DNA of 64,000 nucleotides, from contig NC_057740.1 in assembly GCF_004010195.1 (NCBI RefSeq), forward strand, positions 20,046,405 to 20,110,404, given 5' to 3'. A model generated the notes under the pieces. It was given only the letters and a program-made list of their open reading frames with translations. It was not told the origin of the DNA and searched no databases. The position numbers and the translations under genes were made by a program. Shown here one piece after another: positions 42,301 to 64,000 of this stretch; positions within the stretch are counted from its first letter, which is position 1; every line of letters begins with the position of its first letter. Source of the stretch: Chiloscyllium plagiosum. Lineage: Eukaryota.

Positions 42301-45300
42301 ATGGAAATTGTTCATCATTATTCACCCTTCGATTCTTAAACATCTTTTTGATAAACTCATCAAATAAAAATTGTTTCATTTTGGACAGTTGTTGCTGATA
42401 CATCATTATTCTTATATTTTTACTTTCTATATACAAATATTTATGTTCTGCATCACAGAATGAGACTCAATTGATTGTACTTCTCTGCATTTTTTAAAAT
42501 TTGCTTTCTTCATCTTTTATAAATATAGACAAACTTGCACAATATGTATGTGAAATTTTTTTTAACACATGGTAACTTCACAGAAATCAGTACACTACAA
42601 TAATCCTGCAGCTGCAGAACATTTAAACTACTATTAATATCTGACAACATGACATGTCTGTTACTGACAGGATTTTGTAATTTCAGTACTTACATAAACT
42701 TTCCAAAAATTATGTAGCATTTTGTACAGAATAAAATTACTGAATGTACTGTTCTTTTTAAAACCTATTGCTTATGATGTTTAAAGAATGAATTAATAAA
42801 TTATGGGAAGCAACACACAGTTGAGCAACTCCAGTTTTACTTCACCATTCATTCAGATGTTTCTAAATTGTCATTACTATTTTCCACTTTTGCAGTGCCA
42901 CAAACAATCAGGAGACCAGAGTGTTTGCAAATTGTTCCTTCAATAATATATCTGCTGGACATGTCGATAGAGTTACTGCATATCATCAGTTTAATTCCAA
43001 CACAAAGAACATCACTGAATTGGGACCTTATTCTTTGGAGAAAAACAGTCTCTATGTAAATGGTATGAATTGCCTTATTATTTTGCATTATACTGAAGAA
43101 ACCACTGATGGAGTGAACTGGGGACCTGTGTTCACAGGGAGAGTCGGGCCAGATAATCCTTACATTTATATTGATAGGGTTTAGTTTATCTTAGTCACTT
43201 GGATGGTTGGTTTGTAATGCAGAGTGTCACCAACAGTGTGGATTCAATTCCTGTACTGACTGAGTTACCCTGAAGGATTCTCCTACTCAACCTCACCCCT
43301 GACTTGGCATTGTGACCCTCAAGTTAAACCATTGTCTCTCTCCAATGAGAGAGTGATCCTGCAGTGTTGTAAGACTATGCTAACTTTACCTTTACTGTAA
43401 TTGAATGGAGTTCCTTTGAATTTTGTTCACTCTCTGTAAGTCTGACACTATTTATCCTGTCTTTTTTACTGCTGCAATATATTTACTGTACTTAAACATG
43501 ACACATGTTGTACTATATTCAGAACAGTATCAGAATTCAATACAAATGCATTAAATTACACTACTTTCTTTTCAGACTACCAGGAAACAACTGGTTCAAA
43601 TGGTGAGTATGATTTCTGCTTGTTTCCTTTGTCAGTGTTGAATAATCTGTACTTCCATTTTGTCACAATGAAGAAACTCAACACCATTCCTCTTGACAAA
43701 ATTGCCCATTTGCTTGCCACACTGGCTGCCACCTTAAAAGTTAATTCGTTCAGAAATGACATACAGTGGCAGCAGAGTTTATGACCTCCAATACACACCG
43801 CAGCAATTCACCAAGGCTCCTTTGAGAGCACCTTCCAAACCTGGGATATCTACCACACAGCAGAGCAAAGGCAAAAGATACATGGGAATACCACCATCGG
43901 TAGCTTCTCCTTGAAGCCACACACCAATCCTGACTGAGACATATATCACTTTTCTTCCACTGACACTGGATCAAAATCACAGTTCTTCCATCCCATCAGC
44001 ACTGCTGATGTACCAACACCAACCGGAGTGTGTCAAGGAGAAAGCTTATCACCACCTTCTCAAGGACAATTAATAAATGTTGATTGAGCTAATGATATCC
44101 ACATCCTGTGAAAGGATACAACAAATGGTCTTGTTATATTTATTATTTTAACAAATCTCTTATAGTTTTCCTCATCATTCAATAATTATTCTGGAATATC
44201 ATGAGGAATTGTTTTTTCATATTAAGTAATGTTGGTTTCACTGTCAATGCTTAATTAAATATGCTTGATGTGTGGGATGTCAGTGGTATAATGGTAATGT
44301 CACTGAACTATTAATAGTATAAAAAGGCCAACTGCTTCACCAATGTATTTTTGGAAGACTCAATCTATTATACTTTAAGTCCAGAATCTCAACAATGTGT
44401 TTGAGTTTAAAATACTCTTTCAGATGGTCAAGCATGCTGTTAGGTTCAAAAGTAATTCAGGATCAGTGTTCAAAATGCATAAGGATGGCAGGTGAATTCT
44501 CCCTCAGCGGTGGCCAAAATGTCTCGGAAATAAGAATTCTAGGGGTGACCAAGGAGATAAAGATTTTCCCCTGATATTGAACTGAGAGACATTGAAATCA
44601 GCAGCTACTCCACTCACAGGCTCTGAAAGCTAGTGCTTCCAATTAAACCTGTTGGACAATAACCTGTTGTTGTGTGATTTTTAACTTTGTACACCCCAGT
44701 CCAACACCAGCATCTCCAAATCCTTGCAAATCAATCTGCTTTTTATGTAGTGTGTTATTTAATAAGAAAGGCTTTGTTGCTCATTTATTCTTGCTGTCTG
44801 GTGTCACTTTAAGTATTAAGTTGTCACAGCAATTAAAGTTTCTCTTGTGTGTTGTGGCTTTAAGATTAATGGCGGTTTGATGATCATTGTGAAACTGATG
44901 AATTCATCTCAGTTTCATTCTGTGAATCTAAATACTCTATCTGTCAGCTCATATAGAGAAGGTAAAGGAGTTAGTGAGAATGCAAAATAGCCCTCATGAG
45001 ATCTCCAGACAAATGTTCAAATTTTCTTTTGAATCTTGAATATTGCTTATATAGGACACAGTTTGGTGAATTTTTTTTTGCACTGCACATATCAGGACAA
45101 TTCACAAGAATGCTAATTCAAGGGTATGACCAGCATTTATACAGCACAAGAGGACAACTGAATTGAATTGAATTGAATTTATTGTCACATGTACTGAGGC
45201 ACAGTGAAAAGCTTTGCCTTGTGAGCAATACAGGCAGATCACAGAGTTAAGTAGCATAGATAAGTAAATAATAGGTAAACAGCAGCAAAAACAAAAACAC

Positions 45301-48300
45301 AGGTACAAGCAAATGTTAAGAATTTGTGAGTCCATTCAGTATTCTAACAACAATAGGGTAGAAACTGTTTTGAAACCGGCTGGTAAGTGTGTTCAGGCTT
45401 CTGTACCTTCTCCACGATGGTAGAGGTTGTAGGAAAACATTGCCAGGGTGGGATGGATGTTTGAGAATACTGGCGGCCTTTCCTTGACAGTGGGCCTGCT
45501 AGATGGATTCTATAGATGGGACGTTGGCTTTTGCGATTATTCAGGCCGAGTTCACCACTGTCTGTAACCATCTCCAATCTTGAATGGTGCAGTTGCCATA
45601 GCAGGTAGTGATACAAACAGACAGAATGCTCTTGATGGTGTACCTACAGAAGTTGGCAAGGGTATTTGCCAAATTTCCTCAGGTGCCTGAGGAAGAAGAC
45701 ATTGTTGGGCCTTGGTAACCAGTGCATCCACATGAAGAGTCCAACAAAGCTTGTTGTGGATGACCCTCCCAGGAGCTTGACATTCTCCATTTGTTCCACC
45801 TCTGTGCTTTTAATGTGTAGGGGGGCATGAGAAACATCCAGCTAAAAGTCAATAATGAGTTCCTTGATTTTGCCAGCATTGAGAGCTAGTTTGATTGGTT
45901 GGCAAGTGGATCCTGACTGGCAAGTGCATTGCTATGACAGTGACATACAAACCTATAAAACTCTCATATATTACCAAATTACTATTCTTACTTTTGTTTG
46001 GAATGACATTGCTAGTGGTGTACACATCTCAAACATTTTTTTTGAAAAACCTGAGTTAATTTAAGAAAATGTTTTGTTTTCTCATTAATTTTATATTTCC
46101 CCAGTTAGTTATATAATTTATTCAACTGAGCAATCCTAAAACACAATGCTTTTCATGCTTAATAATAATTGTCAGAATTAATATTGACACTTGCAAATAA
46201 ATGTTGTTTTGTTTTGAATGACTTGTTTATAGCATGATTGGAACTGAAAATGTATTATTATAGCTCCATTGTTGGTTTTGAATATAATTCTGTATACTTC
46301 TACTCAAAGCAGCAAAACTGAACCAATCTCCATCAGAATTTAATGTGACCTTCACTATAACCAGTTTGCCATTCGTGGAATCTTTGCATGACCACACATC
46401 ATCACTGTACCAATCAGCGTCAACTATTATTACTCATGAGGTACACCATCAGAACAATATTTATTCAAATGATTTGCTGATCATTCATATTTTCATCTTT
46501 TGAAACAATAAAAATGTATTTCTTACAGCTAAACACCTTATACAATGAAAGTGAAATTAGCTCTGAGTTTATTGACTGCAAAGTAATCTCCTTAAGGTAA
46601 GAGATCTTCTGTATTATCCCTTTCATTCAAACTAAGCAATCTTTTAAGCTATGTGTCACTTTGTCTGCACAGGAAAGTATTATTTTCATTTCACTGATCT
46701 TGTCCCACATCATTTGATTATTTCCTTTTCAGTCATTCTCACATATCTCTTAAGAATACCTGATTGTCCCATTTGAGGTGTCTTTTTGTATAATCTACTG
46801 ACTGTCTAGTACACAATATTACCTCAACTCTGTTTCATTTATGTATTTGCATCTTCCAAATGTGTAGCTTCCTCTGCAATGGTCCACCCAACCTGTCAAA
46901 ATTATTTGTCATTATTTACTCTTGAAAACTTTTAAAACTTTCGTCAAGTAAAAGGTTTGTGATTTGTGACAGTTGCAGCTGACCAAATCAGATTCTAATT
47001 TATTCTATTCTAATATATTAACCTCTTCTGAATTCTAGATTTTGTGAACAATTATATTCCATATTACAGAAAGTGATTCAATTGTTTGCATTTATCTGGT
47101 AATAAATGCTATTTGTGTCTCCATCCTTTAAGAGCTACGCACAAATTTAATGTACTTCGTACCTAAATGTCACTTAAAAACTAATCTTCCAGTATAAACT
47201 AAACTTCTAACTTTTGGTTTGTGATCACAGCACACATCTTTTTACTTCACAGAAGTTTTAAAAGTTTTGAAAAGTTTGAAGAGTAAATAATGACAAATAA
47301 CTTGGATTGGTTTGGTGAAACATTGGAGAGGAAGCTACACTGTTAGACTTGACAACGTAATAAAGCTTTGAAGGTAGCACAGAAGTTGTCTCAATGCATA
47401 TATGAACCTCCTAATAAATTGTCACATAGAATTGCATTGTTTTCTATTCAGTTCTGATTTAGCAAAATATACATTCAAATTGGATCCAGTGTTACTTCAA
47501 CATCGTGTTGCATATTTCTTTAATTGTTTTTTTTATTCTTTGGCAGTGCCACAAGCAGTCAATTTACCAAAGTGTATGCAATCTGTTCCTTTGCCAATGA
47601 TTCTGCTGCAGAACAAATTGATAGAGTTATTGCATACCAGCAGTTCAATTACAGCACAATAAACATCACTACTCTGGGACCTTATTATCTGGACAGTAAC
47701 AGTCTCTTTGTAAATGGTATGAACATTTTACAGTTTGCTTTTTGGGTGTGAACATCACTGACAACGATATATAGGTGCTGGTGTTGGACTGGGCTGGACA
47801 AAGTTAAAAATCACACAACACCAGGTTATGGTTCAACAGGTTTATTTGGAAGCACTTGCTTTCGAAGTGTGGTTCCTTCATCAGGTTGCTGTGGAGCAGA
47901 ATCTTTTACTATAAATTCTGTGTCTTATGATCCAAGCTACGCGATGAAGGAGCAGCGCTCTGGAAGCAAGTACTTCCAAATAAACCTGTTGTACCACAAC
48001 CTGGTGTTGTGTGACTTTTAACTTTTATCACCGGCAAAGCCAGTGTTTATTGTCAATCCTTTATAAAACCTTCTAGTTATTTTACATCATATTTAAAAGC
48101 CAATCTAGAATCTCCTGAGTGCAGTTGTGTTCACAGAGGGCATGGTTCATATTTTGCATTCTGATATTGTAATGCTGCCTCAAAATGGAATGCCTGTTGA
48201 ATTCAACTTTTCTGCAGGGAATATGCCACTGCATTGTTCCTTCTTATATTGGATTAAATGCTCCAAAGATATTCAACTTCGTTTTTGCGCAAGGCATATG

Positions 48301-51300
48301 CACTATTTTAGGGGAATATAACAGGAAAGCTTCCATTGTGTTATACAGTGGATCTAATGGAGTCCACATCACATTAAATTCTATACAATCTGAGGATGTC
48401 TCCAATTCATTGGGAGGAGGCAATTGCAGCCTATTCTGAGAGGAGCTGTTGTGTTTTCCGTAGCTCCTGATAGTCCTTCGTGATTATGTCTAGCAAGTTA
48501 ATGTAAACTACTTATTTCTATCAGGCAATATCTCTCATTATGTGAGGCAAGTGTCTCTTCAGTTTATACTCATCTGCAGTCTATCCTCCACCACTGATAG
48601 TGAGGTAGATTTTAGAGTCAGTTTAGAGAGAGGAGATTGCTGGCAGTGGACTACTCAAACCAGAATACAACAACTTCTAATTGACTAATTTAACTCTGAT
48701 GTACTATTCTCTTACAGGCTATCACGAGCCCACCACTCAAATCAGTGAGTATGATTTTAGTAATTTTGCTCATTACTTCTCTAAAATACTCTAACATAAT
48801 AATATCTTTAAGATCTAGTGATTTATTTCAGTTTACAAGTTATTTTAGGTAGGAAGACTGCATGTATGTTGCAGTATTTCAACACATCCATTGTTTTATT
48901 TCTGAGTGTGAAATGTCATATGGGAACTTATCTCCAATTTGAATATTGATTTCTGTGAAAACCTATGTTTCATTTAAAGTTGTTTCACTTAAAGTTATAG
49001 TTTTCATGAATCTAACTATAACTTAAGCAATTACAGTGATTGGAAAATTTAAATGACCTGACAATCAGATTGCAGATGTCCTCTTTCTTTAATGATCTTC
49101 ACATTTTAGTTGCCCCATCTCACATAATTATGAAATACATCTACATGGCTATGAAAAGAATTAGAATAGATAGCCATTTCTCTATGCAGCATCTTACACA
49201 ATCTTCACAAAATGGCTATAAACTCCCAGAAAGTGTTACGGAGAAGGAAAAAGTCCATGAACAGGAGTTGCAGGTCATGATTGAGGCCATAAACCTATTT
49301 TTTTGTGACCAGGCACACCATTGGGAGGGGCTCAAAGTAAACGTACTTTAGCAGAGTCTGAAGATGGAAAGTCACCACCTGGGTGCAAAGGCACATCCTG
49401 CCTTCACTGCGTCTCCAAGAAGGAGATGCGGTGCCTCAGCAGTGCAGCCATTTGTACCAGAAGATGTAGATGAGCGTCTTCTATATCTTTATGACAAACG
49501 CCAGAAGAGGCATCAAAGGGGCCAACCAATACCATAACATGGCAGTGGTCAGCTGGTTTATGGCCAACATTTGACTCCTGTAGGACAGCACTCACAGCAG
49601 TAATGTCCAGCGCCCTTGGTGAGTAACGAGTTTGGTTTCTGGCTTTTGCCAGTTCACCAGTCAGGATTCTACAGCAGGACTGAAATGGAGTAGAGGAGAT
49701 GGGTAGTAATCAGGCAAAATGCCTGAGCTTATCAGGCTGACAATTCATCTAGCACTGACTGACCAGGAGTCCAAATCTCATCTGACTACGTTCTCTCAGT
49801 CCTTAGTCAAACAAAGCTCATACCTTGTGTTTCTTTAACAACATAATCAACTAACCATTAACAAAAGTTACTTGCTTGAACAACACAAGTGATGGCATGG
49901 AAATTGGGAAATGTACTCAAGCAGCAAATTCATAGAGTTAATTATCTAATGTCCACATCACCTGATGTTCAGGCTATTTCACAGTCTTTTGGCACCATCC
50001 TGTGGTGTTTCTCTTTCCAGGTTTATAGCTTGATTGGATTGAAAACTTGCCAAATGTAAACTTAGTCTTCTCTTATGTTGCACCTCAACTGTATCATGTT
50101 TATACTTTTAAAGACTCGTATGCATTGCTAATTCATGAAGATTTGTTAACCATTCTTATATAGTTATTTCCTTCACTCCACATGGAAATTATTTACATAT
50201 GTATCAGGATGCCTGGAAAATAGCCCAATCCAATATTGAGTCAGATGTCTTTCAAGCATTCTTTATTAACATGTCAGCCCTCAAAGTTTTCTCTTGGTGT
50301 GCCTGTTTTAGAGTCAGCTTGTACCCTTAATATAAGTGAAGAATGGAGGGCTTTTGTGGTCATGACCCCTGAGCCAGGAGACTTAGGTTCAAGCCCCACT
50401 TACTGCAGAGATGTGCTATAATGTCTCTGACCAATTCTGAGGCAGGGTCACCAGACCTGAAGTATAAACTCTGACTTCTCTCCACAGATGCAGCCAAACC
50501 TGCTGAGCCTTTCCAGCAATATTTGTCTTTGTTAAAGTCTCGAACAAGTTGTTTAAAAAATATCTATAACAGGAGAACATTGCTAACATCCAAACTGTTA
50601 TGAGCCAGCAGTTTTAAGGAAGCATTATTTCTGTAGCAATACTAATGATTCAGTTTGAACGTAAAAACTCATCAGAATCAAAATTTTGAAATGTGGAAAC
50701 TAAGATTAGAAAACAGTGACATTTTTTCTCCATTTTTTACACATTGCTGAAATGTTCACACAATGGCTTCAAACTGCCTCAGTTTTGTTTCTATTGTAAA
50801 ATGTAAAGAATAAAGATCTGAAATAAAGCTCTCAATGTATTTAATTCTGCGCTCGCTATCTTTCCAGATGAACCACCAGTCATGCCTGTGACACAAAATC
50901 CAATTGAGGGCCAGAAACCTTTGTGCTTCAATGTGTCTTTTGGCATCACAAACTTACCACTCAATCCAGCCCTATTTGATACCACTTCACCATTGTATCT
51001 GTCTGCATCAAGTACTATGATTCATCAGGTATATCTAAATAAGCCAAAAGAATATTTATTAAAAAAATTATCTTAAGTAATGTCAAGATCTTATTAAATC
51101 GTGATTTCTTTGCAGCTCAATAACTTATATCGCAACAGCAATATAAATGCAGCATTTTTAGAATGTACAATCACCTCTTTAAGGTAAGAAATCTTCTTTA
51201 GCTGTTGCAGATTTGATTGTAAATTGAAGAGTACGTAGAATTTAACTCCTTTATATCTTTTACCTTGTTGCTGATGTATCTCAAGAGCTTCTTACATAAA

Positions 51301-54300
51301 CAACTTTTTTATTTTAAAATGAAGACTGGAATAAGAAATTTTTTATTTAGTGAATGGCTCAATGTTAAATTGTATGATTTGTTCCCACAATGTTGTTGTA
51401 CAACCTGGCGTCCATGAAGAAAGAGTCTGTTTATAAAAAAGAAAATCACAAATACTTTTAGATTTTTACAGTCATGAATTTTTAAAAAAATGAAAACAAT
51501 ATTCACATAATTCCCTTTAAAAATCTAACTTTATAAGGTAAATATGGATCAGTGAAAATAAACATTTCTAATGTTATGAGACTGCATGAGTCATTTTTAT
51601 CAGCCAAGATGAATACTTCAGGACCAGTGCAGTTATGCATAAGCAAAACATGGTTAAAGTTAATAAGAACAAGGAAAATGCTGGAAATACTCAGTAAAAC
51701 TGGATTCTAATGAAAGGATATTGATCTGAACTAGTAACTTTTGTACATCTCCCCAGGTGTTACTGGATCTGCTGAATATTTCCAGCATTTTCTGTTTTTA
51801 TATCAGATTTCTAGTTTCCTTAATAGTTTGTTTTTGTGAGTAGATTTGGTTTCTTTGAATGCATCATTCCAAAAGTGAGTTCATAACGTGTCTTAAGAAC
51901 TATTCCATTCTATTCTGAGGAATATCAAGGAGGGATATTGACTGTTTATTTCCCTGATTTTTAAAAATTCAGTATATATGAGGATAAACATTCATTTGAC
52001 TGGTATATGATATTTTAGGAATCACCACTAAGTATTTTAAAATATATTTGCCTAATCAAATCCTATCACTAAACCGTCATCAAGGAATGGGAATGCATTT
52101 TGATAGCAGCAAATTCATGTCTATTGGCCTTTACACTGTGTGTCATTGAGTTGGGTTTGAGTTTGAAATCAGTCCAAAGTGGTTGACTTATACCCCAAAA
52201 TAGATCGAACATGATCTGACACTTCCAATAAAGTTCATTTTAAATACCTTTAAATTTCAACTTACTTCAATTCTTTCTGTTGATGATAATTGACAGTGGC
52301 CAATTGGAGTGCTCCCAACTGGTCTCTAGGCAGAATACTATTGTTACCTCTACTGGGTCAATCTCCTAATATCCTTTCCTGAAAGAATTTCAAAGTAAAA
52401 TACTATGCAAACACCTGACCCTCCTGCATGTTGTGACAAGCAATTATTGACCAGCAGAGTTAAAATATATTTGCACTCTCTATTCAAAAGCAATAATAAT
52501 TTAAGCCATAGAGTCACAGAGTCATAGAGATGTACAGCACGGAACAGACCCTTCATTCCGACTCATCAGTGCCAACCAGATATCCCAACCTTATCTAGTC
52601 CCAGTTGCCAGCACGTGGCCCATATCCCTTTAAACCCTTCATATCCATATACCCATCTATATGCCTTTTAAATGCTGTAATTGTACCAGCCTCTGCCATT
52701 TCCTCTGGCAGCTCATTCCATACATGCACCACCTCTGCAAAAAAGTTGCCTCTTAGGTCCCTTTTATATCTTTCTCCCCCCTCACTCTCCAACCTTCTTT
52801 TAGATATTTGTGATATGCATGTTAAAGTTAAAGTTATGCAATTCATTCAAATGGATTAACTGAAATCTATCTGAAGATGAATATTATTACTTATGAACTG
52901 TGATTACAAATATTTTTGTTTCTGGCAGTGCTACAAATGAGATTTACGTGAAAGTACAAGCAGCTTGTGCTTTCAGAAATGGTCCTCAGAAAGTTGATGA
53001 AGTTATTGTGAAGCAGGCATTCCAAGAAAGAACAAACAATACCTCAACTCTAACAACGTACACACTTGAAAGCAACAGTCTCCTGATAACTGGTAACTAA
53101 CTATTGACAGTTTAATTTAATCTCTATCTTAACAAATGTCCTTCGTATATTTCAATCAGACTATCCATATCAGATACAATTTCAGCTGAGATAACTTGTG
53201 CGAGCAATGTTCATTTGCTTCGTCATTTATTGAACCATGTTCTCAACCAGCGAACTAGTATGTTTGTTAGTTGCTAAATTACAACATTTATTCATTTAAG
53301 AAATTAACTAAATTTATTTGTAATTTTTCATTACAATGCCAATGGGCAGTATTTGGAGAAGAGTCCATTGTTCCACTGGTCTCTATGTACAATTACTAAC
53401 TATTGACCTACTGACCGCTGGATTATTATAATCTTGTTTTAGATTAATTTCACTGTTAGGTTGCTGCATTTAAAAATAAATCTTGTGTATTCTGACACAA
53501 GAGATGTTAGCATTTGGGATTGGAGTTTCTCCTCATTTTGAGCCAATGTATAAATAACCCACATTCCCTGGTCACAGGTTTTGAAGAAAAATGTTTCTTT
53601 TACTCTAACTTAATTATTAGCCCTGAATTAACATATAAGTATAATGCGTTTTGAGAAGATTTGTAGCTCAGGTTGAGGTTCTGGATCATTTTCTGGCTCA
53701 GCTGGAAGGATCATTTTCACACGTTTTGTCACCATACTAGTTAACATCATAAGTGAGCCTCTAGATGAAGCGCTAGTGGTATGGCCCACTTTCTATTTAT
53801 GTGTTTGGGTTTCCTTGAGTTGGTGGTGCCATTTCCTCCAGTGATGTCATTTCCTGTGGTGATGCCAGTTCCTATTCTTTTTCTCCTGAGAAAAAAGATC
53901 AGGAAATGGCATCACCACAGGAAATAGCATCACCACAGAAAATGACATCACCAACTCAAGGAAACCCAAACACATAAATAGAAAATGGGCCATACCACCA
54001 ATGCTTCATCCAGAGGCTCACTGATAATGTTACCTAGTATAGTGACAAAACATCTGAAAATGAACCTTCCAGTTCAGCGAGCAATGACATCACCAACTCA
54101 AGGAAACCCAAACACATAAATAGAAAATGGGCCATACCACCAGTGCTTCATCCAGAGGCTCACTGATAATGTTACCTAGTATAGTGACAAAACATCTGAA
54201 AATGAACCTTCCAGTTCAGCGAGCAAACCTACATCCATATGAGTATAATGCTGGAGTGGGGATATCATAATTTCCCTGATACAGACTGTCATTTTGATAT

Positions 54301-57300
54301 CTAGTAAGAAATGGGTTCACATAGTCCAAAAGTTATTTTTAATAGACAAGAAGGAAACAATTTTTTAAATCATTTTATTCAAAGGCAGATCTCTCAAATG
54401 AAAGAACTGTCCGCAAACTCCGTTTCATTTTGTTCATAGTACAGATAGTTAATTTAAGACTTTGTTGCAATTTTATTATTATCAATTTACAGACACTCAG
54501 TTGAAAGAATTGATACATGTTACAAATAATACTTAATATTGAAAATTCTCATGCATGATTTTTATCCCTTCGCCATCTCACTCAACAACTTTGGAATCTT
54601 AAATGATGTATACAAATCATAGAATCCCTACAGAATGAAATCAGACCATTAGGCCCATCAAGTCCACACAGACCCTCTGGGGAGCATCCCATCCTGACCA
54701 TCAATCCCATGACCCAGAATTTCCTATGGCTAACCCACCTAGCCTGCACATCCCTGGACCCAATGGGCACAGTCAATCCACCTAACCTGCACAGATCTTT
54801 GGATTATGGGAGGAAACCAGAGCAAACCTATGCAGACATGGGGAGATGTACAAACTTCACAAAAACAGTGCCCTAGGCTTTGGTTGAACCCAGATCCCTG
54901 GTGCTGTGAGGCAGCAGTGCTAACCACTGGGCCACAGTGCAGCACCAACTCAGTACTCTCAACATCTGTCCCAAGTGAATTTTGGGCACTGGATATTGAA
55001 AGACTATCCAACTGTAGAAGCCAATATAATTAGACCCAATACCACTTTCACTCAGTATCCAGGTATATAAATGTTGCTGGGTAGGGTGTTGACTACATAG
55101 ACTTCAGTGATTTCTCTCCCTGTAGCATTAGGAATTTGAGACCATTTGTGGGACCTTCATCACAACTTAACTGAGGAATCACTTCAGGAATCAGTATGGG
55201 TCCTTTCCAGTTTGCGTTATATGACTGTTTGCAGAATAAACTCACAGTGCCATCAGGAAACTACAGCAAGCGAAGTGCTTTTTTGGCAACATTAATAGAA
55301 TAGTTCTGCTAAACTGTTAAACTGACAAGATATCAGAATATAACTTCATCTTGTTTGTCTGCTTGAAAATCATGAATTATCTGAAAATTACGTAATTCAT
55401 TGTTAACATAAAATTAGGTTCAACTTTAGAGTCCTTTACATATGCTTATATTGCAGAACTAGGGAAAACAAGTTTCTAATTTCAGCTTTAATTTTTTATC
55501 TACATTTATTAGTTTATTTAAAAGAACTGTTGGAGGCATTTATATTTAAATGTTTTAAAGATTTACTAAGCAAATCTTTAAAACATTTAAATATAAATGC
55601 CTCCAACAGTTCTTGATTTGCTTTACTTTCCAACTGGTCTTATGTAAACTTTTCCTACAGTCTTTATAGTCAATTACAATTATTGTTGCATGAGTTTTGG
55701 AAAACATTAAAAATGCACTTTCTTTTTAGGTTGTGAGCAACTGAAAACTACTGTGGAACCTGCTACACCTGTAGAACGAGAGCTGCCAGTAATGTCAGAA
55801 AAACAGGGAGATCTCACCTTTGAAGTTAACTTCACAGTAATAAACTATAACTTTACAGATGGACTCCAAATTCCAAGTTCTGCTGAATACAGACACATGA
55901 CAACAAATCTTATGCGAAACGTATGCACTTTGTTTTTCACTAACAGCATTAACGTTAGAATATTTATTTAAAATACCTGTATATTAAATAATGGTTTCCA
56001 GAAAGCAAATTGTTTGCACTTGATTTAGTTAGTTATTCAATACAGACTTTGAAATATTTTTCAGTGTTACAAACAAAAGTAGAAACTATATTTTAAACTT
56101 GCTGTTCTAAGTTATTAATTGCTGTTTTAAGTATAACTTTATATGTTTTGAAAAGAGAAAATTTACAATTACTCTTATATTTCTTCAGCTCTCAAATTTA
56201 TTTGAAAACAGCATGTTAAAGGACAGTTATAAATTTTGCCACATTACTAGTTTAAGGTAAGATTAAAAAAATTACTATTCTTATATAAGCTGAGTAAAAT
56301 CATTTAGGTCAGTAATCCACTACATGAAATCTCATTATGGTCAGAGCAAAAATAAATGTATAGCCTAAGCAGTGGGAATGTGAGGGATAAAGAAAATAAG
56401 TTAAAATTATAAAAATAAAAGCTATATATCAGCAGTTACCAAGACTCTAAAGTAAGTATCCTTTATTCAATGAAATGTGAAAGAAGATCTAGTTTTAACT
56501 TCAGAACTTCAATAGTTTGTCTGTTTGTTTAATCCCTTCCTCAAAATACAGTGAATGCAGATTTTTTTAAAAAGGCAGAGGTAAATAGATTCTTGATTAT
56601 CAAGAGGATGAATGATTCTCGAAGGTATGCAATAATGTAGAGCTGAAATCAAAACCATATCAGCTACATTCTTATCGAATGGCAGAGCAGGCCTGAGGGG
56701 CCAAGTGGCCTATTCATTTTTCTTTGTCATGTATCTTGGCATTTAAGCAAACGGCATAGAGCCTTTTGTTTTTTAACAGGGTAATCGCAAAAAAACGTTC
56801 AGAATTTGAAGCATTATAAACTGTTAGAAGTGAAGCATAAATGAAATAAAAGAAGTTTACTTCAAAGGGTCTTGAGTGCAGAATGGCAAAGGTCAAGATT
56901 TTTACGAATGGAGGATCAAGATATTTGGGGTATAACTTCTATTGAGATAGTTCCCTTTTGACCTGGCCATAAAAATACTGGGAGGGCAGAGGCACATATG
57001 TTGGCTTATTCAAGACATAAATTATTTCCATTCTGTTTTTAAAATTGTGATTATGGTGGTGAGCATCTTTGGTCTGAGGTTTCCCTTTAGGTTCTAAGAA
57101 AGCTTCAAACATTTATTAAGAAAAAGTAGTCAACTGTGGGAGAATAGTTAGCTTCAACAAGGTTCATGCCTCTTTTTCTGTTGGTGCACGATGTAAACAA
57201 TTTAACAGTTTGTTGTTCAGATGCTTCTAAGTGTTTTGAAGGAAGGCAGTAAGGTCAAGTCCAGCAATTACAAACCACTCAGTTTTACTTCAGTGGTGAA

Positions 57301-60300
57301 GAAGCATATAGAAACAACTATTCAGCATAGAATTTATAGTCGCACAGAAGAGGTTGTGTTGATTAGGAAGAGCCAGGTGGATTTTTAAAAGGACAATAGT
57401 GTTTAAATAACCTGCTGGAATCCTTTGAAGAGATAATGGAAAGGCTTAGTGATGAATGTGATATACTTGGAATTCCAGAAGGAATTTAATATTTATGTCA
57501 TACAACTGACCTATGAAGAAAGATATTGATTGTGGAATAAAAGGGAAACAAAATTGACTGAGTGATAGAAAGCAAAAACTAATGGTCAATGTATTTTATT
57601 TTGAGGTTGGCTTGTGCAGGAGTTTGCATTGGGGCCCTTGCTTTTCATGACTAACATTAATGATGTAGCGGACAACATCAAAGACAATGGATAATATAAG
57701 AATTGAAACTTTTACAAACTGTGTGGAGGAAAATATACAACTCCAGAAGGACATTGACATGTGGCTGGAGTGGGCAGACAGGTGGCAGATAGGGTTTTAA
57801 TACAGTGAGCTGTGAGGAAGAACAATAGAAGATAAAGCAAAATAGGCAGTAGAGTTCTAAAGTTAAGGGGGTGGGGCAGTGGCAGTGGTGGGGGGGGGTG
57901 GCGGGAGGGGGTGGTAGGAGGAAGGAGCAGAGGGGCTTGGCAGGACAGGCTGAGATAGCCTCTCATGAAGCCAATGCGATCTTGGCTTTATTAATCAGGG
58001 CATAAAGTACAGCAGCAAGGAAGTGATGTTGAATTTGGATAAGATACATGTTAGACCTCAGTTGGAATATTGTATACAATATTGAGCGCCACATTATAGG
58101 AAGGATATGAATGTATTGGAGAGAATGCTGAAGCAATTTACAAGTACAGTTCCAGGGATGAGAAATTTCTATATGAGGATAGATTGAAAGAGTTGGGTTT
58201 GTTGTTCATGGAGAAATGAAAACTATGAGAAGGTCTGATAGATATTTTCAAAATTATAAGGGGTGGATACCATTGATAGAGAGAAACAGTTCATGCTTTC
58301 AAAAGGATCAAGAACCAGAGGGCATATATTTAAAATGATTTGCTAAAAAAACAAATGTGAGATGTGAAAACTAATAGTTAGGGTAAGGAATGCACTGCCT
58401 GGATTTATGGTGGAGGCAAGTTCAATTGAAGCATTCAAGAAGGCATTAGCTGATTATTTATATAGAAATAACATGCAAGAGTATGAGGGTAAAGCAGGAG
58501 ATTGGCAGGAGGTAATGATGCATACTTGAAGAGCCATTGTGAACATGATGGATCTAATGACCTTCTCTGTGCCTTAACATTTGTTTCCAGAATTGCACTG
58601 GCTACCTGAGGATCCTATGTGATTAAACTCATTCCAAGACCCATCTGCCTGAGGACTCCTGTTCCACCCCTTATTAGACCCCAGATCCTTCTCTCCAACT
58701 TTTTTCTCACTAGCAATATCCCCAAAGCCCTCATAAAATTCTAGAACAAAGAGTGGGAAAATAATAAAAATAGAAACTGTTGGTCTGGCAGCATCTGTGG
58801 TGAGAGAAACAGAGTTAACATTTTTAGTCCCATGACATTTCTGTGAATTGTAATGTGGGATTGAAAGAGAGAAAAAATGATTTCATTTCTATATGTTGAA
58901 ACACCAATAATAATTAAAATATAAAATAACTTCCAGTAGGTGCACACTTGCAGTTAAATGTGCAATCTGGAAAATAGCACGTGCGCACCTACTGGACATT
59001 ACTTTCATGTCTATGTGTCCCAAATTACAATTTCCATTTTCAATTTTTAATTATGAGGCTTTCTGCTTGCAGTAGCATTATTTTTAACCAATCTAATTGT
59101 CTATGTTAACCATATATATATGCTGTGCAAAAGACTTCATTCACTATATAATTAAGATTTTATTTCTATTTTAATTTCTGGTCTGTTTCAACAGTCCAGG
59201 ATCAATCAAAGTTTCCACTTCTTGCTACTTTGATCCTTCAAAATCAAACAGACCAATCCTTGCAAAAGAACTGAGATCAGAATTTGATGTTGGAACAAAT
59301 GGATCAAGATGGCTTGGCAGATCATTTCAACTTAGAAGTGATAGTGTATCTGTGGGTATGTATCAGTCCTGCATTGTTATTCTGAATTGATTCACATATT
59401 TTATAATGATTTTTATTAGCAACGAACTGTCATTCTAATAAACATAAAGGCGTGCAATTTGCTGTGAAAGTTAATTGTGATGCATAAATTTATACTGTGC
59501 CTTAAGGTGGGATAAATTAGGAATATCAAATAAATATAAATGTTTTCTGCATTTTATTCTCATGCTACCTCCAAAATATAACATGGGAATTAAAGGATAC
59601 AATATATCATAACACAGAACTATAATTTCATAGATCTTTGTTCAACAATTGTTCTAAAATGTGAATGTTTTCTAAAACTCCTCCAGTCTCAATTTGTATC
59701 AATTTGAACCAATGTTTAAAAGAGCCTAGAAAGAGTTTGTGGTCAGCAGGGCTACACATAGTTTTACACACTGGATGCACCAACAGGTTGATGCTTAAGT
59801 ACATTATTGGGAGAAGGAGCAAATGCAAGAAGAAAATAGGACAGGCGATGTTCAGAGACCTAAGGAGACAGTTGGACTTTTAAAGGCTTGGTGGTATCAA
59901 AAAGTGCTGAGAGTGCCACATATATTTCAATAAAGATTAGGCATGAAAAACGTGCTTAAAATGAACATTGGTTTGTTGACTTCCTTTAACTGAAACATGT
60001 TGCTAAGCAGCACCTTCTGTGGAATCTAAAGTGATTATCCATTCAAATCTGATGGACCAGAGCCTTTCAGGTTTCAGCTTGGAGAAATGATTTGAATTCA
60101 CTACTGCATCACAGCAAAAGCAAATTCCCTCATTCAACACACTTTATATTGTGTGATTCAAACTCTTTGAATCAGAAGCAAAAACAGAAATTGCAGGAAA
60201 AGCTCAGCAGGTCTGGCAGCATCTGTGGAGAGAAATCAGAGCTAACATTTCTGGTCCAGTGACCCTTGCTCAGAACTGGACCCAAAACATTAACTCTGAT

Positions 60301-61013
60301 TTCTCTCCAGAGATGCTGCCAGACCTGCTGAGCTTTCCCAGCAATTTCTGTTTTAGTTTCTGATTTCCAGCATCCACAGTTCTTGTGGTTTTTCTTTAAA
60401 TTGATACTTTAACATACAGTCCCTTTTGGGAAAAAAATCTGCATTCTTACCTGGTCTGGCCTATATGTGATCCATAACAGCCAGTCTTAACTCTGACCTG
60501 CACTCTGGGCAAGTAGAAATGAGCAATAAATACTGGCCTTGCTAGTGATGCCCAAATCCCATGTACAAAAAAGTAAAACAAAGTAGCATAATGTTCAAGT
60601 CCAGGATAAGTTTTGCTACAATACGAAAACAAGCTGTTCATACTTTGTTCTAAATTAAGCCCTCATCACTCTTTACCTTGCTCTTGAACATGCACCCTGG
60701 TTGCTGGACACCTAAAGTCCAGCACAATGTTAAAACAAGTCTTGTTTTCCTTTTATAGCTTATCGTAATGCTTGCCCAAAAATATTGAATATATTTTCTA
60801 TATGCTTAAGCATAAGCTATAATTGGAATATATTTATTGGTTATTTTCATTATTATTGTATGTACAATTGTATTTTTATATTGTGTTTATCTCCATGCAG
60901 ACCCCATGGCTCCTGTCTTCTCTGATCGATTTGAATTACCGTATTGGGCCATCATAGTTATAGTATTTGCCATTCTGCTTGCTCTGTTCCTCATTACGAT
61001 TTTAGCTCTCTTG
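12297..61013 (+). CDS. MUC16: Partial multi-exon mucin-16-like transmembrane mucin (13 tandem SEA modules P1-P13 + transmembrane exon; 5' end and probably the cytoplasmic tail not seen)
   Basis: 53 in-frame exons. SEA repeats have MUC16-type motifs (FNVTFTITNL, LFKNSSI..FS.C, VDRV..Y..F, LGPYTLD..SLYVNG) and a Cys loop. The TM exon ELPYWAIIVI resembles human MUC16 DLPFWAVILI as recalled. Orthology is inferred, not tested. Confidence 0.85.
12754..12887 (+). CDS. P1 exon A
   Basis: 134 nt; LIPLLTPAEEPNLTAYNVTFIISSPSFQ...LIENE. Confidence 0.9.
12983..13050 (+). CDS. P1 exon B
   Basis: 68 nt; LNDLFKNSSINATFFSCRFQSL. Confidence 0.9.
13347..13516 (+). CDS. P1 exon C
   Basis: 170 nt; MVDGDSSTVTAMCSF...LGPYTLDKDSLHVN. 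Confidence 0.9.
14535..14561 (+). CDS. P1 exon D
   Basis: 27 nt; (D)YHEDRLIT. Confidence 0.85.
14998..15131 (+). CDS. P2 exon A
   Basis: 134 nt; AIPLVTPTEEPKLTDYNVTF...MIVNE; aag acceptor. Confidence 0.88.
15228..15295 (+). CDS. P2 exon B
   Basis: 68 nt; LEELFKNSSINATFSSCRFHSL. Confidence 0.9.
15587..15756 (+). CDS. P2 exon C
   Basis: 170 nt; MVDGDRSTVTAMCSF...SLYVN. Confidence 0.9.
16718..16744 (+). CDS. P2 exon D
   Basis: 27 nt; (D)YHEVQLLT. Confidence 0.85.
17187..17320 (+). CDS. P3 exon A
   Basis: 134 nt; AIPLVTPTEEPKLTDYNLTF...MIVNE. Confidence 0.9.
17417..17484 (+). CDS. P3 exon B
   Basis: 68 nt; LNELFKNSSINATFSSCRFHSL. Confidence 0.9.
17775..17944 (+). CDS. P3 exon C
   Basis: 170 nt; MVDGHSSTVTAMCSF...SLHIN. 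Confidence 0.9.
18884..18910 (+). CDS. P3 exon D
   Basis: 27 nt; (D)YHEAQLLT. Confidence 0.85.
19316..19449 (+). CDS. P4 exon A
   Basis: 134 nt; SIPPVTPSGEPKLTDYNVTF...MIANE. Confidence 0.9.
19546..19613 (+). CDS. P4 exon B
   Basis: 68 nt; LDGLFKNSSINATFSSCRFHSF. Confidence 0.9.
19911..20080 (+). CDS. P4 exon C
   Basis: 170 nt; MVDGDSSTVTAMCSF...LGPYTLDKDSLYVN. Confidence 0.9.
20828..21040. mobile_element. Penelope-derived hairpin element
   Basis: Inverted arms; perfect 17-bp TSD ctcatttgactgctgtc at 20811-20827 and 21041-21057; absent from the paralogous units. Confidence 0.8.
21311..21337 (+). CDS. P4 exon D
   Basis: 27 nt; (D)YHEARLVT. Confidence 0.85.
21545..21856 (-). mobile_element. 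HE1-type SINE
   Basis: tRNA-like head (ggtggctcagtgg..., ggttcaattcc) and CR1-like tail on the minus strand. Confidence 0.85.
22083..22216 (+). CDS. P5 exon A
   Basis: 134 nt; ALPRVTPTAEPSLVDYNVTCIISSPSFQ...MIVNE. Confidence 0.9.
22310..22377 (+). CDS. P5 exon B
   Basis: 68 nt; LDDLFENSSINITFSRCRFHSF. Confidence 0.9.
22684..22853 (+). CDS. P5 exon C
   Basis: 170 nt; MVNGDSSAVTAICSF...SLYVN. Confidence 0.9.
23268..23294 (+). CDS. P5 exon D
   Basis: 27 nt; (D)YHETRLAS. Confidence 0.85.
23700..24778 (-). mobile_element. CR1 LINE RT/C-terminal fragment
   Basis: Peptides TKFADNTKIG, WQLEFNLDKCEVM, HLEYCAQFWS, GLSYEERLNSLGLYTLE; TSD tgccagag. Confidence 0.9.
24916..25206 (-). mobile_element. 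HE1-type SINE
   Basis: Full-length match to the other copies; flanked by tatt. Confidence 0.88.
25541..25686 (+). CDS. P6 exon A
   Basis: 146 nt; VIPVLSVTTTPEKKLRPIDYNVTFIINRP...IGKV. Confidence 0.88.
25778..25845 (+). CDS. P6 exon B
   Basis: 68 nt; LNELFKNSSIKATFSRCSVHML. Confidence 0.9.
26785..27115 (-). mobile_element. tRNA-derived SINE of the second family
   Basis: B-box-like gttcaaaacc on the minus strand; similar to 8655-9020. Confidence 0.6.
27627..27796 (+). CDS. P6 exon C
   Basis: 170 nt; MIDGDRGRVTAICAF...SLYVN. Confidence 0.9.
28809..28835 (+). CDS. P6 exon D
   Basis: 27 nt; (D)YHEALPLI. Confidence 0.85.
29447..29607 (+). CDS. P7 exon A
   Basis: 161 nt; EPPIVPVTKNPIQSQRPSSFNVTFTIDNLPF...SASNIITHK. 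Confidence 0.9.
29697..29764 (+). CDS. P7 exon B
   Basis: 68 nt; LNELYRGSNIKATFSKCTIGSL. Confidence 0.9.
30248..30417 (+). CDS. P7 exon C
   Basis: 170 nt; ATTSQKTKVYAMCSF...SLYVD. Confidence 0.9.
31158..31184 (+). CDS. P7 exon D
   Basis: 27 nt; (D)YHESTPTT. Confidence 0.85.
31508..31641 (+). CDS. P8 exon A
   Basis: 134 nt; QAPNQNQESGFNVTFTIINLPY...SASTIITYK. Confidence 0.9.
31730..31797 (+). CDS. P8 exon B
   Basis: 68 nt; LNSTFKNSDIKTAFTDCKVISL. Confidence 0.9.
32405..33210 (-). mobile_element. CR1 3' fragment interrupted by an HE1 SINE
   Basis: GLNGLSYRERLDKLG peptide; the CR1 sequence resumes after the SINE. Confidence 0.8.
32788..33105 (+). mobile_element. HE1-type tRNA-derived SINE, well preserved
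   Basis: ggcggcacggtggcacagtggtt (A box), gggttcaattcc (B box), body gtgtggagtttgcacattctcc, tail gggcctgtttccacactgta. Confidence 0.9.
34144..34313 (+). CDS. P8 exon C
   Basis: 170 nt; GTSKKMTKVYAICSF...SLYVN. Confidence 0.9.
34619..34645 (+). CDS. P8 exon D
   Basis: 27 nt; (D)YHESTPPN. Confidence 0.85.
34953..34975 (+). pseudogene. Relic 3' end of an exon C from a deleted SEA module
   Basis: acagtctctatgtaaatg|gtatg matches the SLYVNG exon end plus donor seen at 43045-43067; no exon A, exon B or upstream part of exon C precedes it. Confidence 0.75.
35272..35298 (+). CDS. Extra (orphan) exon D of the deleted module
   Basis: 27 nt; (D)YHESTPST; ttttcag/gtgag intact; phase 1-1. Confidence 0.75.
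35622..35758 (+). CDS. P9 exon A
   Basis: 137 nt; QMPTQKSLPRGFNVTFTVTSLPF...VLVNE. Confidence 0.9.
35847..35914 (+). CDS. P9 exon B
   Basis: 68 nt; LNLMYNRSDISAEFTNCKVISL. Confidence 0.9.
36060..37020 (-). mobile_element. Decayed CR1 fragment containing a short plus-strand CR1 3' tail at 36495-36570 ending (ctattgt)n
   Basis: ggagaccaaaactgtacatggtattcaagatgtggtc corresponds to the HLEY..QFWSP region. Confidence 0.6.
37025..37880 (-). mobile_element. CR1 LINE 3' fragment
   Basis: Peptides WKMEFNLEKCEVIHFG, HLEYCVQF, FRGDVRGKCFTQRVV. Confidence 0.9.
37925..38105. mobile_element. Penelope-derived hairpin element, diverged
   Basis: Inverted arms similar to 60175-60390. Confidence 0.55.
38870..39443 (-). 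mobile_element. CR1 (HER1-like) LINE 3' fragment
   Basis: Peptide FTQRVVRVWNELPEEVVEAGTITAFKRHLD. Confidence 0.9.
39971..40140 (+). CDS. P9 exon C
   Basis: 170 nt; ATISELTKAYAICYF...SLYVN. Confidence 0.9.
41356..41382 (+). CDS. P9 exon D
   Basis: 27 nt; (G)YHEAIPPT. Confidence 0.85.
41676..41812 (+). CDS. P10 exon A
   Basis: 137 nt; DTSNQDQSSPEFNVTFIITNLPF...SIITYE. Confidence 0.9.
41903..41970 (+). CDS. P10 exon B
   Basis: 68 nt; LNLMYSKSNISTEFTDCKVISL. Confidence 0.9.
42896..43062 (+). CDS. P10 exon C
   Basis: 167 nt (one codon shorter); ATNNQETRVFANCSF...SLYVN. Confidence 0.9.
43190..43395 (+). mobile_element. Short tRNA-derived SINE, diverged
   Basis: tRNA-like head with ggattcaattcc B box; ends actttaccttttac. 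Confidence 0.45.
43576..43602 (+). CDS. P10 exon D
   Basis: 27 nt; (D)YQETTGSN. Confidence 0.8.
43750..44110 (+). mobile_element. LINE 3' fragment (same family as 9190-9590)
   Basis: Reverse-complement similarity to 6590-6790 and 9190-9590. Confidence 0.5.
45160..45890 (-). mobile_element. Rex1/Babar-like LINE 3' fragment
   Basis: Minus strand encodes a degenerate TIKSILSVCITTCYGNCT motif; (TTCAA)n tail at 45159-45180. Confidence 0.7.
46310..46440 (+). CDS. P11 exon A (acceptor at 46310 or 46313)
   Basis: 131/128 nt; AKLNQSPSEFNVTFTITSLPF...TIITHE. Confidence 0.85.
46529..46596 (+). CDS. P11 exon B
   Basis: 68 nt; LNTLYNESEISSEFIDCKVISL. Confidence 0.9.
47547..47716 (+). CDS. P11 exon C
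   Basis: 170 nt; ATSSQFTKVYAICSF...SLFVN. Confidence 0.9.
47772..48026. mobile_element. Penelope-derived hairpin element, second family (partial copy at 44620-44722)
   Basis: Inverted arms aaagttaaaaatcacacaacaccaggtt...ggaagcac and complement; CTGATGA..GAAA core on the minus strand. Confidence 0.7.
48718..48744 (+). CDS. P11 exon D
   Basis: 27 nt; (G)YHEPTTQI. Confidence 0.85.
50868..51028 (+). CDS. P12 exon A
   Basis: 161 nt; EPPVMPVTQNPIEGQKPLCFNVSFGITNLP...MIHQ. Confidence 0.9.
51116..51183 (+). CDS. P12 exon B
   Basis: 68 nt; LNNLYRNSNINAAFLECTITSL. Confidence 0.9.
52505..52790 (-). mobile_element. CR1 3' fragment
   Basis: Peptide VWNELPEEMAEAGTITAFKRHID; same family as 38870-39443. 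Confidence 0.88.
52929..53092 (+). CDS. P12 exon C
   Basis: 164 nt; ATNEIYVKVQAACAF...YTLESNSLLIT. Confidence 0.88.
53648..54235. mobile_element. Penelope-derived element, third family: inverted arm plus 142-bp tandem duplication
   Basis: 53680-53880 is the inverse of 53890-54235; 53941-54082 is repeated at 54083-54224; TSD catat(a/g)agtataatgc at 53632-53647 and 54236-54251. Confidence 0.7.
54615..54940 (-). mobile_element. HE1-related SINE, diverged
   Basis: ctggtgctgtgaggcagcagtgctaaccact head shared with the other copies. Confidence 0.7.
55522..55614. repeat. Perfect 43-bp inverted repeat with 7-nt spacer
   Basis: 55522-55564 is the exact reverse complement of 55572-55614. Confidence 0.95.
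55730..55920 (+). CDS. P13 exon A (long; includes the linker that elsewhere is encoded by exon D)
   Basis: 191 nt; (G)CEQLKTTVEPATP...FEVNFTVINYNF...SSAEYRHMTTNLMRN; tttttag/gtatgc. Confidence 0.88.
56189..56256 (+). CDS. P13 exon B
   Basis: 68 nt; LSNLFENSMLKDSYKFCHITSL. Confidence 0.9.
57400..58580 (+). mobile_element. Decayed CR1 RT/3' fragment
   Basis: gttagacctcagttggaatattgtatacaa (VRPQLEYCIQ); frameshifted. Confidence 0.75.
59195..59355 (+). CDS. P13 exon C, membrane-proximal SEA with GSIKV motif
   Basis: 161 nt, phase 2-1; PGSIKVSTSCYFDPS...WLGRSFQLRSDSVSV; acag/gtatgt. Confidence 0.85.
60175..60390. mobile_element. Penelope-derived hairpin element (related partial copies near 50435-50530, 51670-51810, 58770-58840)
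   Basis: Arms aagctcagcaggtctggcagcatctgtggagagaaatcagag and complement. Confidence 0.7.
60901..61013 (+). CDS. Juxtamembrane + transmembrane exon
   Basis: 113 nt, phase 1-0; (D)PMAPVFSDRFELPYWAIIVIVFAILLALFLITILALL; gcag/gtaagt. Confidence 0.9.
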
Positions 61014-63200: not shown

Positions 63201-64000
63201 TTCTAGATTGCCTTATGTGTAAGGAACAGATTTACTGGTTTCTACAACATGTTACAAGATCCTTTTGGAATATACTATACACATCTGGAAGGAAAATAGT
63301 AGTTCTGCAGCAATTCAACATTACAATGATGACTAACAAGAAATGAATGGAATAATCTTTGTGGCTTACAGAGAAAAAAAAATGAATGTACTGCCAACCC
63401 ATCATCTTGACTTTTGAGGACTGCTCACCATTTCCTCAAAGATTTTTATTATTCCTTGATTGTATTCTTGGTAATCTATCTGCTTGGTTTACTTGGATAT
63501 GCATGCAATTTTTCTGTGAAGAGTATTTCAGAAACAGACCTTAAAAATCAGACATTTCTCAGAGCAAAACATAACTTTCAATCTGTCTCCAAAGTTTCAA
63601 ACATAAATGATATACCACTACATCCTGAAAATTAGCTTAGGAATTCCAGTATCTTCAGGCTTTGAATTTACTCCGATATATATGGGACAAATATTAGCTA
63701 CACAAGGAACAATTATACTTGGAAAACTATTTAAAATTAGCTTTAAATTTCCACTTCAGTGGCTTCATAGATGTACTAAGAGCCACTACCCATCCAAAAG
63801 TTATCTTCTCCATTTTTATTTCTATCCATCACACAATTCTTTTTTCTTTCAAAATATATTTTATACATAAACAATGTCTAAATAGAAACAGATATATAGT
63901 CAAAAATACAGTTCAGTACTGTATAGTGGCATATCAAAGAAAAGAACAAACATGGGAGTTTGGCTCCATCCAAACAAACTACAGCCATCTCTTACTTGAA

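Follow-up and report, generated by a model that had tools for sequence, protein, structure and literature searches.

A candidate self-cleaving SEA domain with a predicted disulfide across the cut in a shark MUC16-family mucin

Does the membrane-proximal SEA domain of a shark mucin cut its own chain, and are the two pieces then free to part? The question is raised by a stretch of 64,000 nucleotides from Chiloscyllium plagiosum (assembly GCF_004010195.1, contig NC_057740.1, positions 20,046,405 to 20,110,404; this whole stretch is called the window herein) within a 45.4-Mb contig of a 3.56-Gb genome. On its plus strand lie 13 three-exon SEA modules (12754-59355), then a transmembrane (TM) exon and a tail exon; together they form the 3′ end of a membrane mucin of the MUC16 family. 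Each of the 13 modules of the tandem array contains two cysteines in its C-loop, and the best PDB matches are MUC16 SEA domains. A single TM helix and a short MUC16-type tail stand behind the array (60901-61013 and 63207-63299), and a profile of the TM/tail part matches proteins named mucin-16 in frogs, reptiles, and mammals. The last module, P13, contains the residues G-S-I-K-V between its two cysteines. A first-pass annotation, made from the letters of the window, had described this as a canonical autoproteolysis motif and had proposed that the fragments could stay disulfide-tethered, making shedding redox-dependent. From the comparisons presented here, P13 is likely to cleave itself; the favored reading, at a probability of about one-half, is that the cut is made at Gly-Ser and that the C-loop disulfide is predicted to hold both pieces covalently together.

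Exons A, B, and C of P13 and the TM exon share one open frame with AG/GT ends (Table 1). G-S-I-K-V is coded at 59199-59213, with the Gly and Ser codons exactly where they had been annotated. The joints 55920>56189, 56256>59195, and 59355>60901 are contained in contigs of the runs X1, X2, and X3 with GT..AG borders and 0 mismatches; these runs represent at most 3 samples from 2 studies, and their RNA nature was guessed by a tool and is not on record, the contigs nevertheless being spliced. The latter two joints had been predicted; the end of exon A is corrected to 55920. Because the contigs join exon C directly to the TM exon, there is no further SEA domain between P13 and the membrane helix in these transcripts, as had been supposed. 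Among raw-read runs, X9 is without reads on the stretch and X8 without reads on the P13 exons. The same splice occurs in gene models made independently for catshark, horn shark, and skates, and exon C is 100% identical to mucin-16-like proteins of Chiloscyllium punctatum. The C. plagiosum protein named mucin-16-like belongs to the neighboring minus-strand gene. Pfam, applied to single exons, matched SEA in one of six pieces (exon A, E 0.00046), under the gathering cut-off.

P13 holds exactly two cysteines, Cys54 and Cys70, which enclose a loop of 15 residues. The first cysteine precedes G-S by 7 residues and the loop has no insertion, as in the short-loop SEA type that is penultimate in amniotes. 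All 16 other modules of the window (12 on the plus and 4 on the minus strand) have an 18-residue loop, and a G-S-hydrophobic-x-hydrophobic motif is found in none of these 16, both as first annotated. One minus-strand module (exon C 7612-7443) combines the typical 18-residue loop with an in-register G-S followed by T-S-V, and a second module of this kind lies upstream of the window.

Table 1. Features of the plus-strand MUC16-family gene, in window positions.
Feature	Position	Strand	Basis or remark
P1-P12, typical SEA modules	12754..53092	+	same gene as P13; 18-residue Cys-Cys loop; without G-S motif
P12 exon A	50868-51025	+	spliced contigs
P13 exon A: linker and first half of the membrane-proximal SEA	55730..55920	+	AG/GT ends, open frame, spliced contigs
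P13 exon B (68 nt): helix end and strand β2 with first loop Cys	56189..56256	+	splice ends, contigs, model strand 51-60
Codon of first C-loop Cys (modelled residue 54)	56237..56239	+	aligns with first C-loop Cys of solved MUC16 SEA
P13 exon C (161 nt): β2–β3 loop, G-S-I-K-V, second Cys, remainder of domain	59195..59355	+	splice ends, contigs
Gly and Ser codons of the predicted scissile bond	59199..59204	+	sequence; 3-residue loop 61-63 between model strands
Codon of second C-loop Cys (residue 70)	59223..59225	+	aligns with second C-loop Cys of solved MUC16 SEA
Juxtamembrane stalk (~14 residues) and TM helix	60901..61013	+	joint 59355>60901 in contigs of 3 runs; model helix 128-159
Last coding exon: TM end, MUC16-type cytoplasmic tail, stop	63207..63299	+	loose contig ends past 61013 match here

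In MUC1, the chain is cut while the domain folds, by strain at the Gly-Ser bond together with the serine hydroxyl; the two products remain noncovalently associated, and force unfolds the domain (PMC13643018, PMC6954182; the papers cited herein are represented by excerpts). In print, the motif is given as G/S[V/I]VV, or as GSxxV where x is V or I (PMC13643018, PMC9478142). P13 exhibits the features of this type in its SEA fold, in Gly-Ser at a short β2–β3 loop, and in the MUC1 loop length, and its loop aligns without gaps to 4 of 4 MUC1-type SEA rows, 1 of them named mucin-1. P13 has the G-S at the β2–β3 turn, the loop length, and the membrane-adjacent place in common with the self-cleaving SEA domains of MUC1, MUC3A/B, MUC12, MUC17, enteropeptidase, matriptase, IMPG1/2, and ADGRF1/F5. 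Since Gly, Ser, the loop length, and two of the three hydrophobic positions are present, cleavage of P13 is likely, and it is held to be so across all readings taken together. However, the exact published consensus is absent, with Lys at the fourth position where V or I is called for. "Canonical" was thus an overstatement, and P13 is classed not as a canonical autoproteolytic SEA domain but only as one that may work like it. GSLRV, which is similar to GSIKV, is treated as merely putative in the literature (PMC2958558). In a hand-picked set of 52 domains, Lys is the commonest residue at this position (26 of 52). In the model described below, it lies between the hydrophobic positions 3 and 5 of β3 and so probably on the exposed face. 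P13 further differs from MUC1-type domains in being preceded by an array of non-cleavable SEA repeats.

The AlphaFold2 model of P13, calculated from 7 aligned sequences and without atom distances, has a mean predicted local distance difference test score of 76.6, with ~80-88 over the hairpin. Herein, strands 51-60 and 64-72 are linked by a P-G-S loop, and Cys54 and Cys70 are placed symmetrically about the turn, like cross-strand neighbors. Fold searches matched SEA domains best, namely mouse MUC16 1IVZ (Z 15.9, root mean square deviation 2.4, 116 aligned), TMPRSS6, and human MUC16 repeats. MUC1 SEA structures are absent among the fold matches listed, which is no evidence because the MUC1 entries are two-chain. 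The best matches in sequence and fold, typical MUC16 repeats (SEA5, PDB 7SA9/8GKL/8VM1) and the mouse last SEA (1IVZ), share the C-loop cysteine pair with P13 but differ by a loop of 18-19 or more residues, by the absence of G-S, and by their place on the opposite side of the trees. The C-loop cysteines are described as completely conserved across human MUC16 repeats and able to form a disulfide (PMC10829539). At both cysteine columns of P13, hydrophobic residues are found in 3 of the 4 MUC1-type rows, and Cys occurs at neither column in any of the 4. These hydrophobic residues suggest that a disulfide of P13 would be situated in the core, and the predicted Cys54–Cys70 bond is probably buried.

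By analogy with MUC1, the serine hydroxyl would attack the strained Gly-Ser bond during folding in the endoplasmic reticulum, creating a large outer chain and a short membrane chain. As the model and homology suggest, Cys54 (β2, outer chain) would face and bond Cys70 (β3, membrane chain), probably in the core. Because the two cysteines stand on opposite chains, the C-loop bond would tether them, and the cut would be mechanically silent until that bond is broken. Force alone could then unfold the domain without releasing the ectodomain, unlike in MUC1. The predicted cysteine tether across the scissile bond sets P13 apart from the noncovalent heterodimers of MUC1-type SEA domains (PMC6954182, PMC13643018). 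Release would need either reduction of the bond or a second cut in the membrane-adjacent stalk, for which the shark stalk would offer the same route as that of human MUC16. A C-loop bond that is generic and probably buried makes this locked cut likelier than routine redox shedding. The proposal of redox-dependent shedding is weakened, the cysteine pair being the generic MUC16 C-loop pair of every module.

The reach of the domain was examined with a profile of domain, TM helix, and tail, run against 1.84 billion representatives (150 listed); 59 of 157 collected proteins have a MUC16-type TM and tail. Domain classes were taken from loop-masked profiles, the short-type profile being trained on an overlapping set, and the rows are not independent, with several per species; names were checked for 30 proteins. 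The P13 type is the last domain in 37 of the 59 proteins, with G-S kept in 36/37, the first cysteine in 32/37, the second in 35/37, and all three in 31/37. In another 11 of 59 it is penultimate (G-S 7/11, first cysteine 11/11, second cysteine 4/11); the 4 that combine G-S with both cysteines come from a turtle, a lizard, a snake, and a marsupial. The remaining 11 of 59, among them 5 long arrays of mammalian appearance and 6 proteins that have just one or two domains, lack it in the last two places, be it by loss or through gaps in annotation. Six mammal-like MUC16 models (P0015, P0016, P0028, P0030, P0035, and P0091) are without a short-loop domain before the last SEA, reflecting either loss of the domain or exons skipped in annotation.

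By species, the cysteine-flanked G-S domain is terminal in lamprey, chimaera, skates, sharks, bichir, reedfish, sturgeon, lungfish, and two frogs. It is penultimate, with G-S and both cysteines, in four turtles, an agama, a gecko, a snake, and the sugar glider (the latter with a 7-residue insert), as well as in a wombat fragment. Exact published motifs (PMC13643018, PMC9478142, PMC2958558) stand between the two cysteines in several of these: GSVVV in three turtles; GSIVV in the chimaera, the fourth turtle, and the gecko; and GSIIV in lamprey and snake. Across the 52 hand-picked domains, a set partly chosen by motif, no other of the 113 columns is as conserved as those of Gly and Ser. This conservation pattern is visible in public gene models. 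The distribution supports the annotated idea of an ancestral SEA domain: the cysteine-flanked G-S form is likely the ancestral vertebrate state. It is, however, general to most non-placental vertebrates and not a special property of the shark gene. A lamprey protein named mucin-2-like (P0018) has 15 SEA domains and a MUC16-type tail, which dates MUC16-like arrays to before the jawed vertebrates.

Gly-Ser often occurs in tight turns, and in P13 it might be kept as an uncut, tight β-turn. P13 would then be an intact, disulfide-stabilized short-loop SEA domain, shed in the membrane-adjacent stalk. The noncanonical Lys would fit this, as would the human protein, in which DSVLV is uncut and the chain is cut at most 12 residues from the membrane (PMC4456727), and the G-P versions in sawshark and lamprey; the cross-strand disulfide might also alter the strain on which cleavage depends. 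On the other hand, Lys is out of phase with the hydrophobic positions, orthologues carry the exact GSVVV and GSIVV, and the serine is found in 36 of 37 terminal domains with no substitution by Asn, Thr, or Asp. In lamprey, 7 internal repeats combine the 15-residue loop and both cysteines with G-P, whereas the terminal and one internal domain have G-S. The short, cysteine-bridged fold hence needs no serine, which favors a chemical reason for keeping it, and an uncut turn is considered rather unlikely.

A cut that is made and put to use is the second alternative: force would unfold the cut domain and expose its disulfide, and mucosal thiols or thiol reductases would free the ectodomain. This is the redox-dependent shedding of the first-pass annotation, with force as a second key. 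Buried disulfides that are exposed by force occur in other proteins. G-S and both cysteines occur together in 31 of the 37 terminal domains, and unless the bond is broken at times, a cut would be of no mechanical consequence. In the literature, MUC1-type SEA domains figure as force-sensitive fuses (PMC13643018, PMC6954182). Yet the other modules of the window, all 16 of them non-cleavable, have the same cysteine pair, as do all human repeats (PMC10829539), so that no special role is needed for it. The bond is, in addition, probably buried, and one paralogue lineage keeps G-S without the pair. A working switch of this kind is regarded as clearly unlikely.

The paralogues bear on whether the bond is formed at all. 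The shark genome has 3 MUC16-type tails and the cluster at least 3 paralogues, 2 genes combining G-S with both cysteines. One of these two is the minus-strand gene of the window (10986-551, continuing to contig position 20030039; protein P0008), whose terminal SEA reads G-S-V-K-C and is followed by TM and tail; it has both loop cysteines and two extra cysteines in β3. The third paralogue (L003, 19866527-19905756, minus strand) keeps G-S in its terminal SEA with both loop cysteines replaced by Ser, the two having been lost together in this lineage. G-S with Ser at both loop cysteines is also seen in P0017 and P0037 and offers a natural untethered control. Two further terminal-type SEA exons, at 20275285-20275437 and near 20292004-20292219 (both minus strand), have E-S in one case and G-S in the other, neither with a second cysteine; no TM or tail exon for them was found in the 40 kb examined. 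Six multi-SEA proteins (P0052, P0073, P0083, P0089, P0110, and P0142) have G-S[V/I][V/I][V/A] in nearly every repeat without the cysteine pair and are possibly cut at many sites.

P13 might accordingly be imagined as MUC1-like, being cut with its cysteines unpaired or otherwise paired and its pieces held by the β-sheet alone. Paralogues and placental-type proteins do keep G-S without the pair, many orthologues have an extra β3 cysteine that would allow alternative pairing, and the C-loop bond is called possible, not shown, in the cited source (PMC10829539). P13 itself, however, is extracellular and has only two cysteines, which the model places face to face across the hairpin and which match the C-loop cysteines of solved MUC16 domains in the alignment. 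This arrangement makes an untethered P13 very improbable.

Several observations weigh against the locked cut as well. A mechanically silent cut needs a reason for its conservation, and the reading supplies none. For human MUC16, the reported cut is at most 12 residues away from the membrane, DSVLV being left intact (PMC4456727), and P13 lacks the exact consensus. The sawshark orthologue has G-P in place of G-S, one shark exon has E-S, and one paralogue is without the loop cysteines, so that neither G-S nor the pair is indispensable. Single-cysteine proteins point the same way and show the pair to be dispensable: the second cysteine alone is left in 3 of 37 terminal proteins and the first alone in placental-type proteins. 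The shallow alignment behind the model, its lack of atom distances, and the tree topology described next also count on this side.

Is P13 the counterpart of the penultimate SEA of mammalian MUC16, as the first-pass annotation had suggested? That domain in human MUC16/CA125 (the 55th, second from the membrane) is of the same family and the same short-loop type. In primates it differs from P13 by Asp in place of Gly, by the lack of the second cysteine, and by one more typical SEA on its membrane side; tests of the human site showed no cut there. The primate DSVLV/DSMLV aligns in register with GSIKV, seven residues past the first cysteine; the orangutan domain reads DSVLV, the motif given for human (PMC4456727). 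Raw identity does not tell penultimate from last SEA, the values of P13 being 24.4% with the orangutan DSVLV domain, 23.7% and 25.5% with its two typical neighbors, 27.4% with the turtle penultimate, and 30.3% with the turtle last SEA.

The trees were built without agrin, perlecan, and human MUC1 and MUC16 SEA domains, with stand-ins in use (orangutan and baboon for human MUC16). In an all-column quick tree of 82 rows, 27 short-loop domains fall on one side of a branch with a Shimodaira–Hasegawa approximate likelihood ratio test value of 83, and the amniote last SEA stands among the typical repeats. Loop-masked trees of 41 and 52 rows (99 columns) group frog terminal with amniote penultimate domains at 95/97 and 96/98, the amniote last SEA again being with typical repeats. 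The fish terminal domains, however, join the MUC1-type rows (74/85, then 95/90), and the short-loop type is not recovered as a clade exclusive of MUC1-type SEA in these 99 columns. A grouping of anamniote terminal domains with the amniote last SEA is rejected by the approximately unbiased test (p 0.0004, 0.0008), whereas a single clade of short-loop domains is not (p 0.43, 0.33). The annotated likeness thus holds as far as the last SEA is rejected and DSVLV is in register, and falls short in that one clade with the penultimate SEA, though compatible with the data, is not recovered once the loop is masked. On the best reading, P13 and the penultimate SEA of mammals represent one and the same ancestral domain, behind which amniotes would have added a typical SEA; strict orthology of the two is likely. 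The position of MUC1-type rows beside fish terminal MUC16 domains would fit a shared origin but is only a lead, given long branches and the absence of agrin, perlecan, and other SEA families.

The fate of the site in placental mammals was followed with a search from the colugo domain, which returned 74 proteins, the loop being read in 50 (3 were false pattern matches and 21 not covered or missed). The site is G-S in 25 of the 50 loops, D-S in 11, D-P in 6, S-S in 6, and N-P in 2. Primates have DSVLV or DSMLV; rat, gerbil, dog, mustelids, and several bats keep G-S. The second cysteine is present in only 2 of 50 loops, those of the Tasmanian devil and one identical loop, and is lost in 48 of 48 placental-type proteins. 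Placental mammals would thus have lost the second cysteine and often Gly or Ser, and human DSVLV is a likely vestige. A bolder proposal would make the ancestral MUC16 domain a two-key fuse, for which force and reductant are both needed. It would survive from lampreys to marsupials, placentals would have lost first the second cysteine and then Gly or Ser, and the MUC1 fuse would be its untethered relative; this is unlikely.

The likeness of human DSVLV to MUC1 GSVVV has been in print since 2004 (PMC3431878, citing Maeda 2004; PMC4456727), and chicken Muc16 has been described with at least 4 SEA domains (PMC1552070); further general background is given in PMC6586460 and PMC12958477. The literature search yielded nothing on cartilaginous-fish MUC16, on a cysteine-flanked G-S domain of non-placentals, or on a disulfide across an SEA cut, in a coverage that largely excludes subscription literature and with existing alignments or supplements that may show such domains.

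The remainder of the window gives the genomic frame of P13. The cytoplasmic-tail exon at 63207-63299 lies outside the coordinates of the first-pass annotation; 62273-62329 was rejected as tail exon, as the contigs run on into 63207. On the minus strand, the 4 SEA modules belong to the second gene and extend beyond the window. The two head-to-head arrays are separated by a 500-base assembly gap (11010-11509). Both begin at this gap without a signal peptide or mucin domain in view, so that their 5′ parts are missing or collapsed. A signal peptide and an N-terminal Pro/Thr/Ser-rich mucin domain were not found in the window, the plus-strand array beginning 1.2 kb past the gap; P/S/T-rich N-terminal parts are present in 4 of 6 long relatives checked. 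P1-P5 (12754-22853, plus strand) exhibit a periodicity of ~2.2 kb with similar introns of 290-306 nt between exons B and C, which suggests recent tandem duplication. The introns are rich in short high-copy repeats. LINE reverse-transcriptase-like remnants, which are presumably CR1-type elements, are situated at 23861-24241 (minus strand), 37509-37862 (minus strand), and ~57600-58500.

The site at which MUC16 is cut for the release of CA125 has been debated for two decades: DSVLV was proposed because it resembles the MUC1 site, and human constructs then turned out not to be cut there. DSVLV as a decayed copy of a once conserved self-cleavage motif would explain both the proposal and the human result. 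Carnivore, bat, and rodent MUC16 with G-S but without the second cysteine matters for mouse models of CA125 shedding. The turtle and chimaera domains with exact motifs between two cysteines, together with the three shark paralogues with and without cysteines, represent natural test material and controls for the MUC16 cleavage question. Should P13 be uncut, it would be an ordinary mucin domain with an interesting history. If the favored reading is true, an SEA domain that is self-cut yet disulfide-joined would gate ectodomain release in a new manner and lend itself as a module for force- and redox-gated synthetic receptors.

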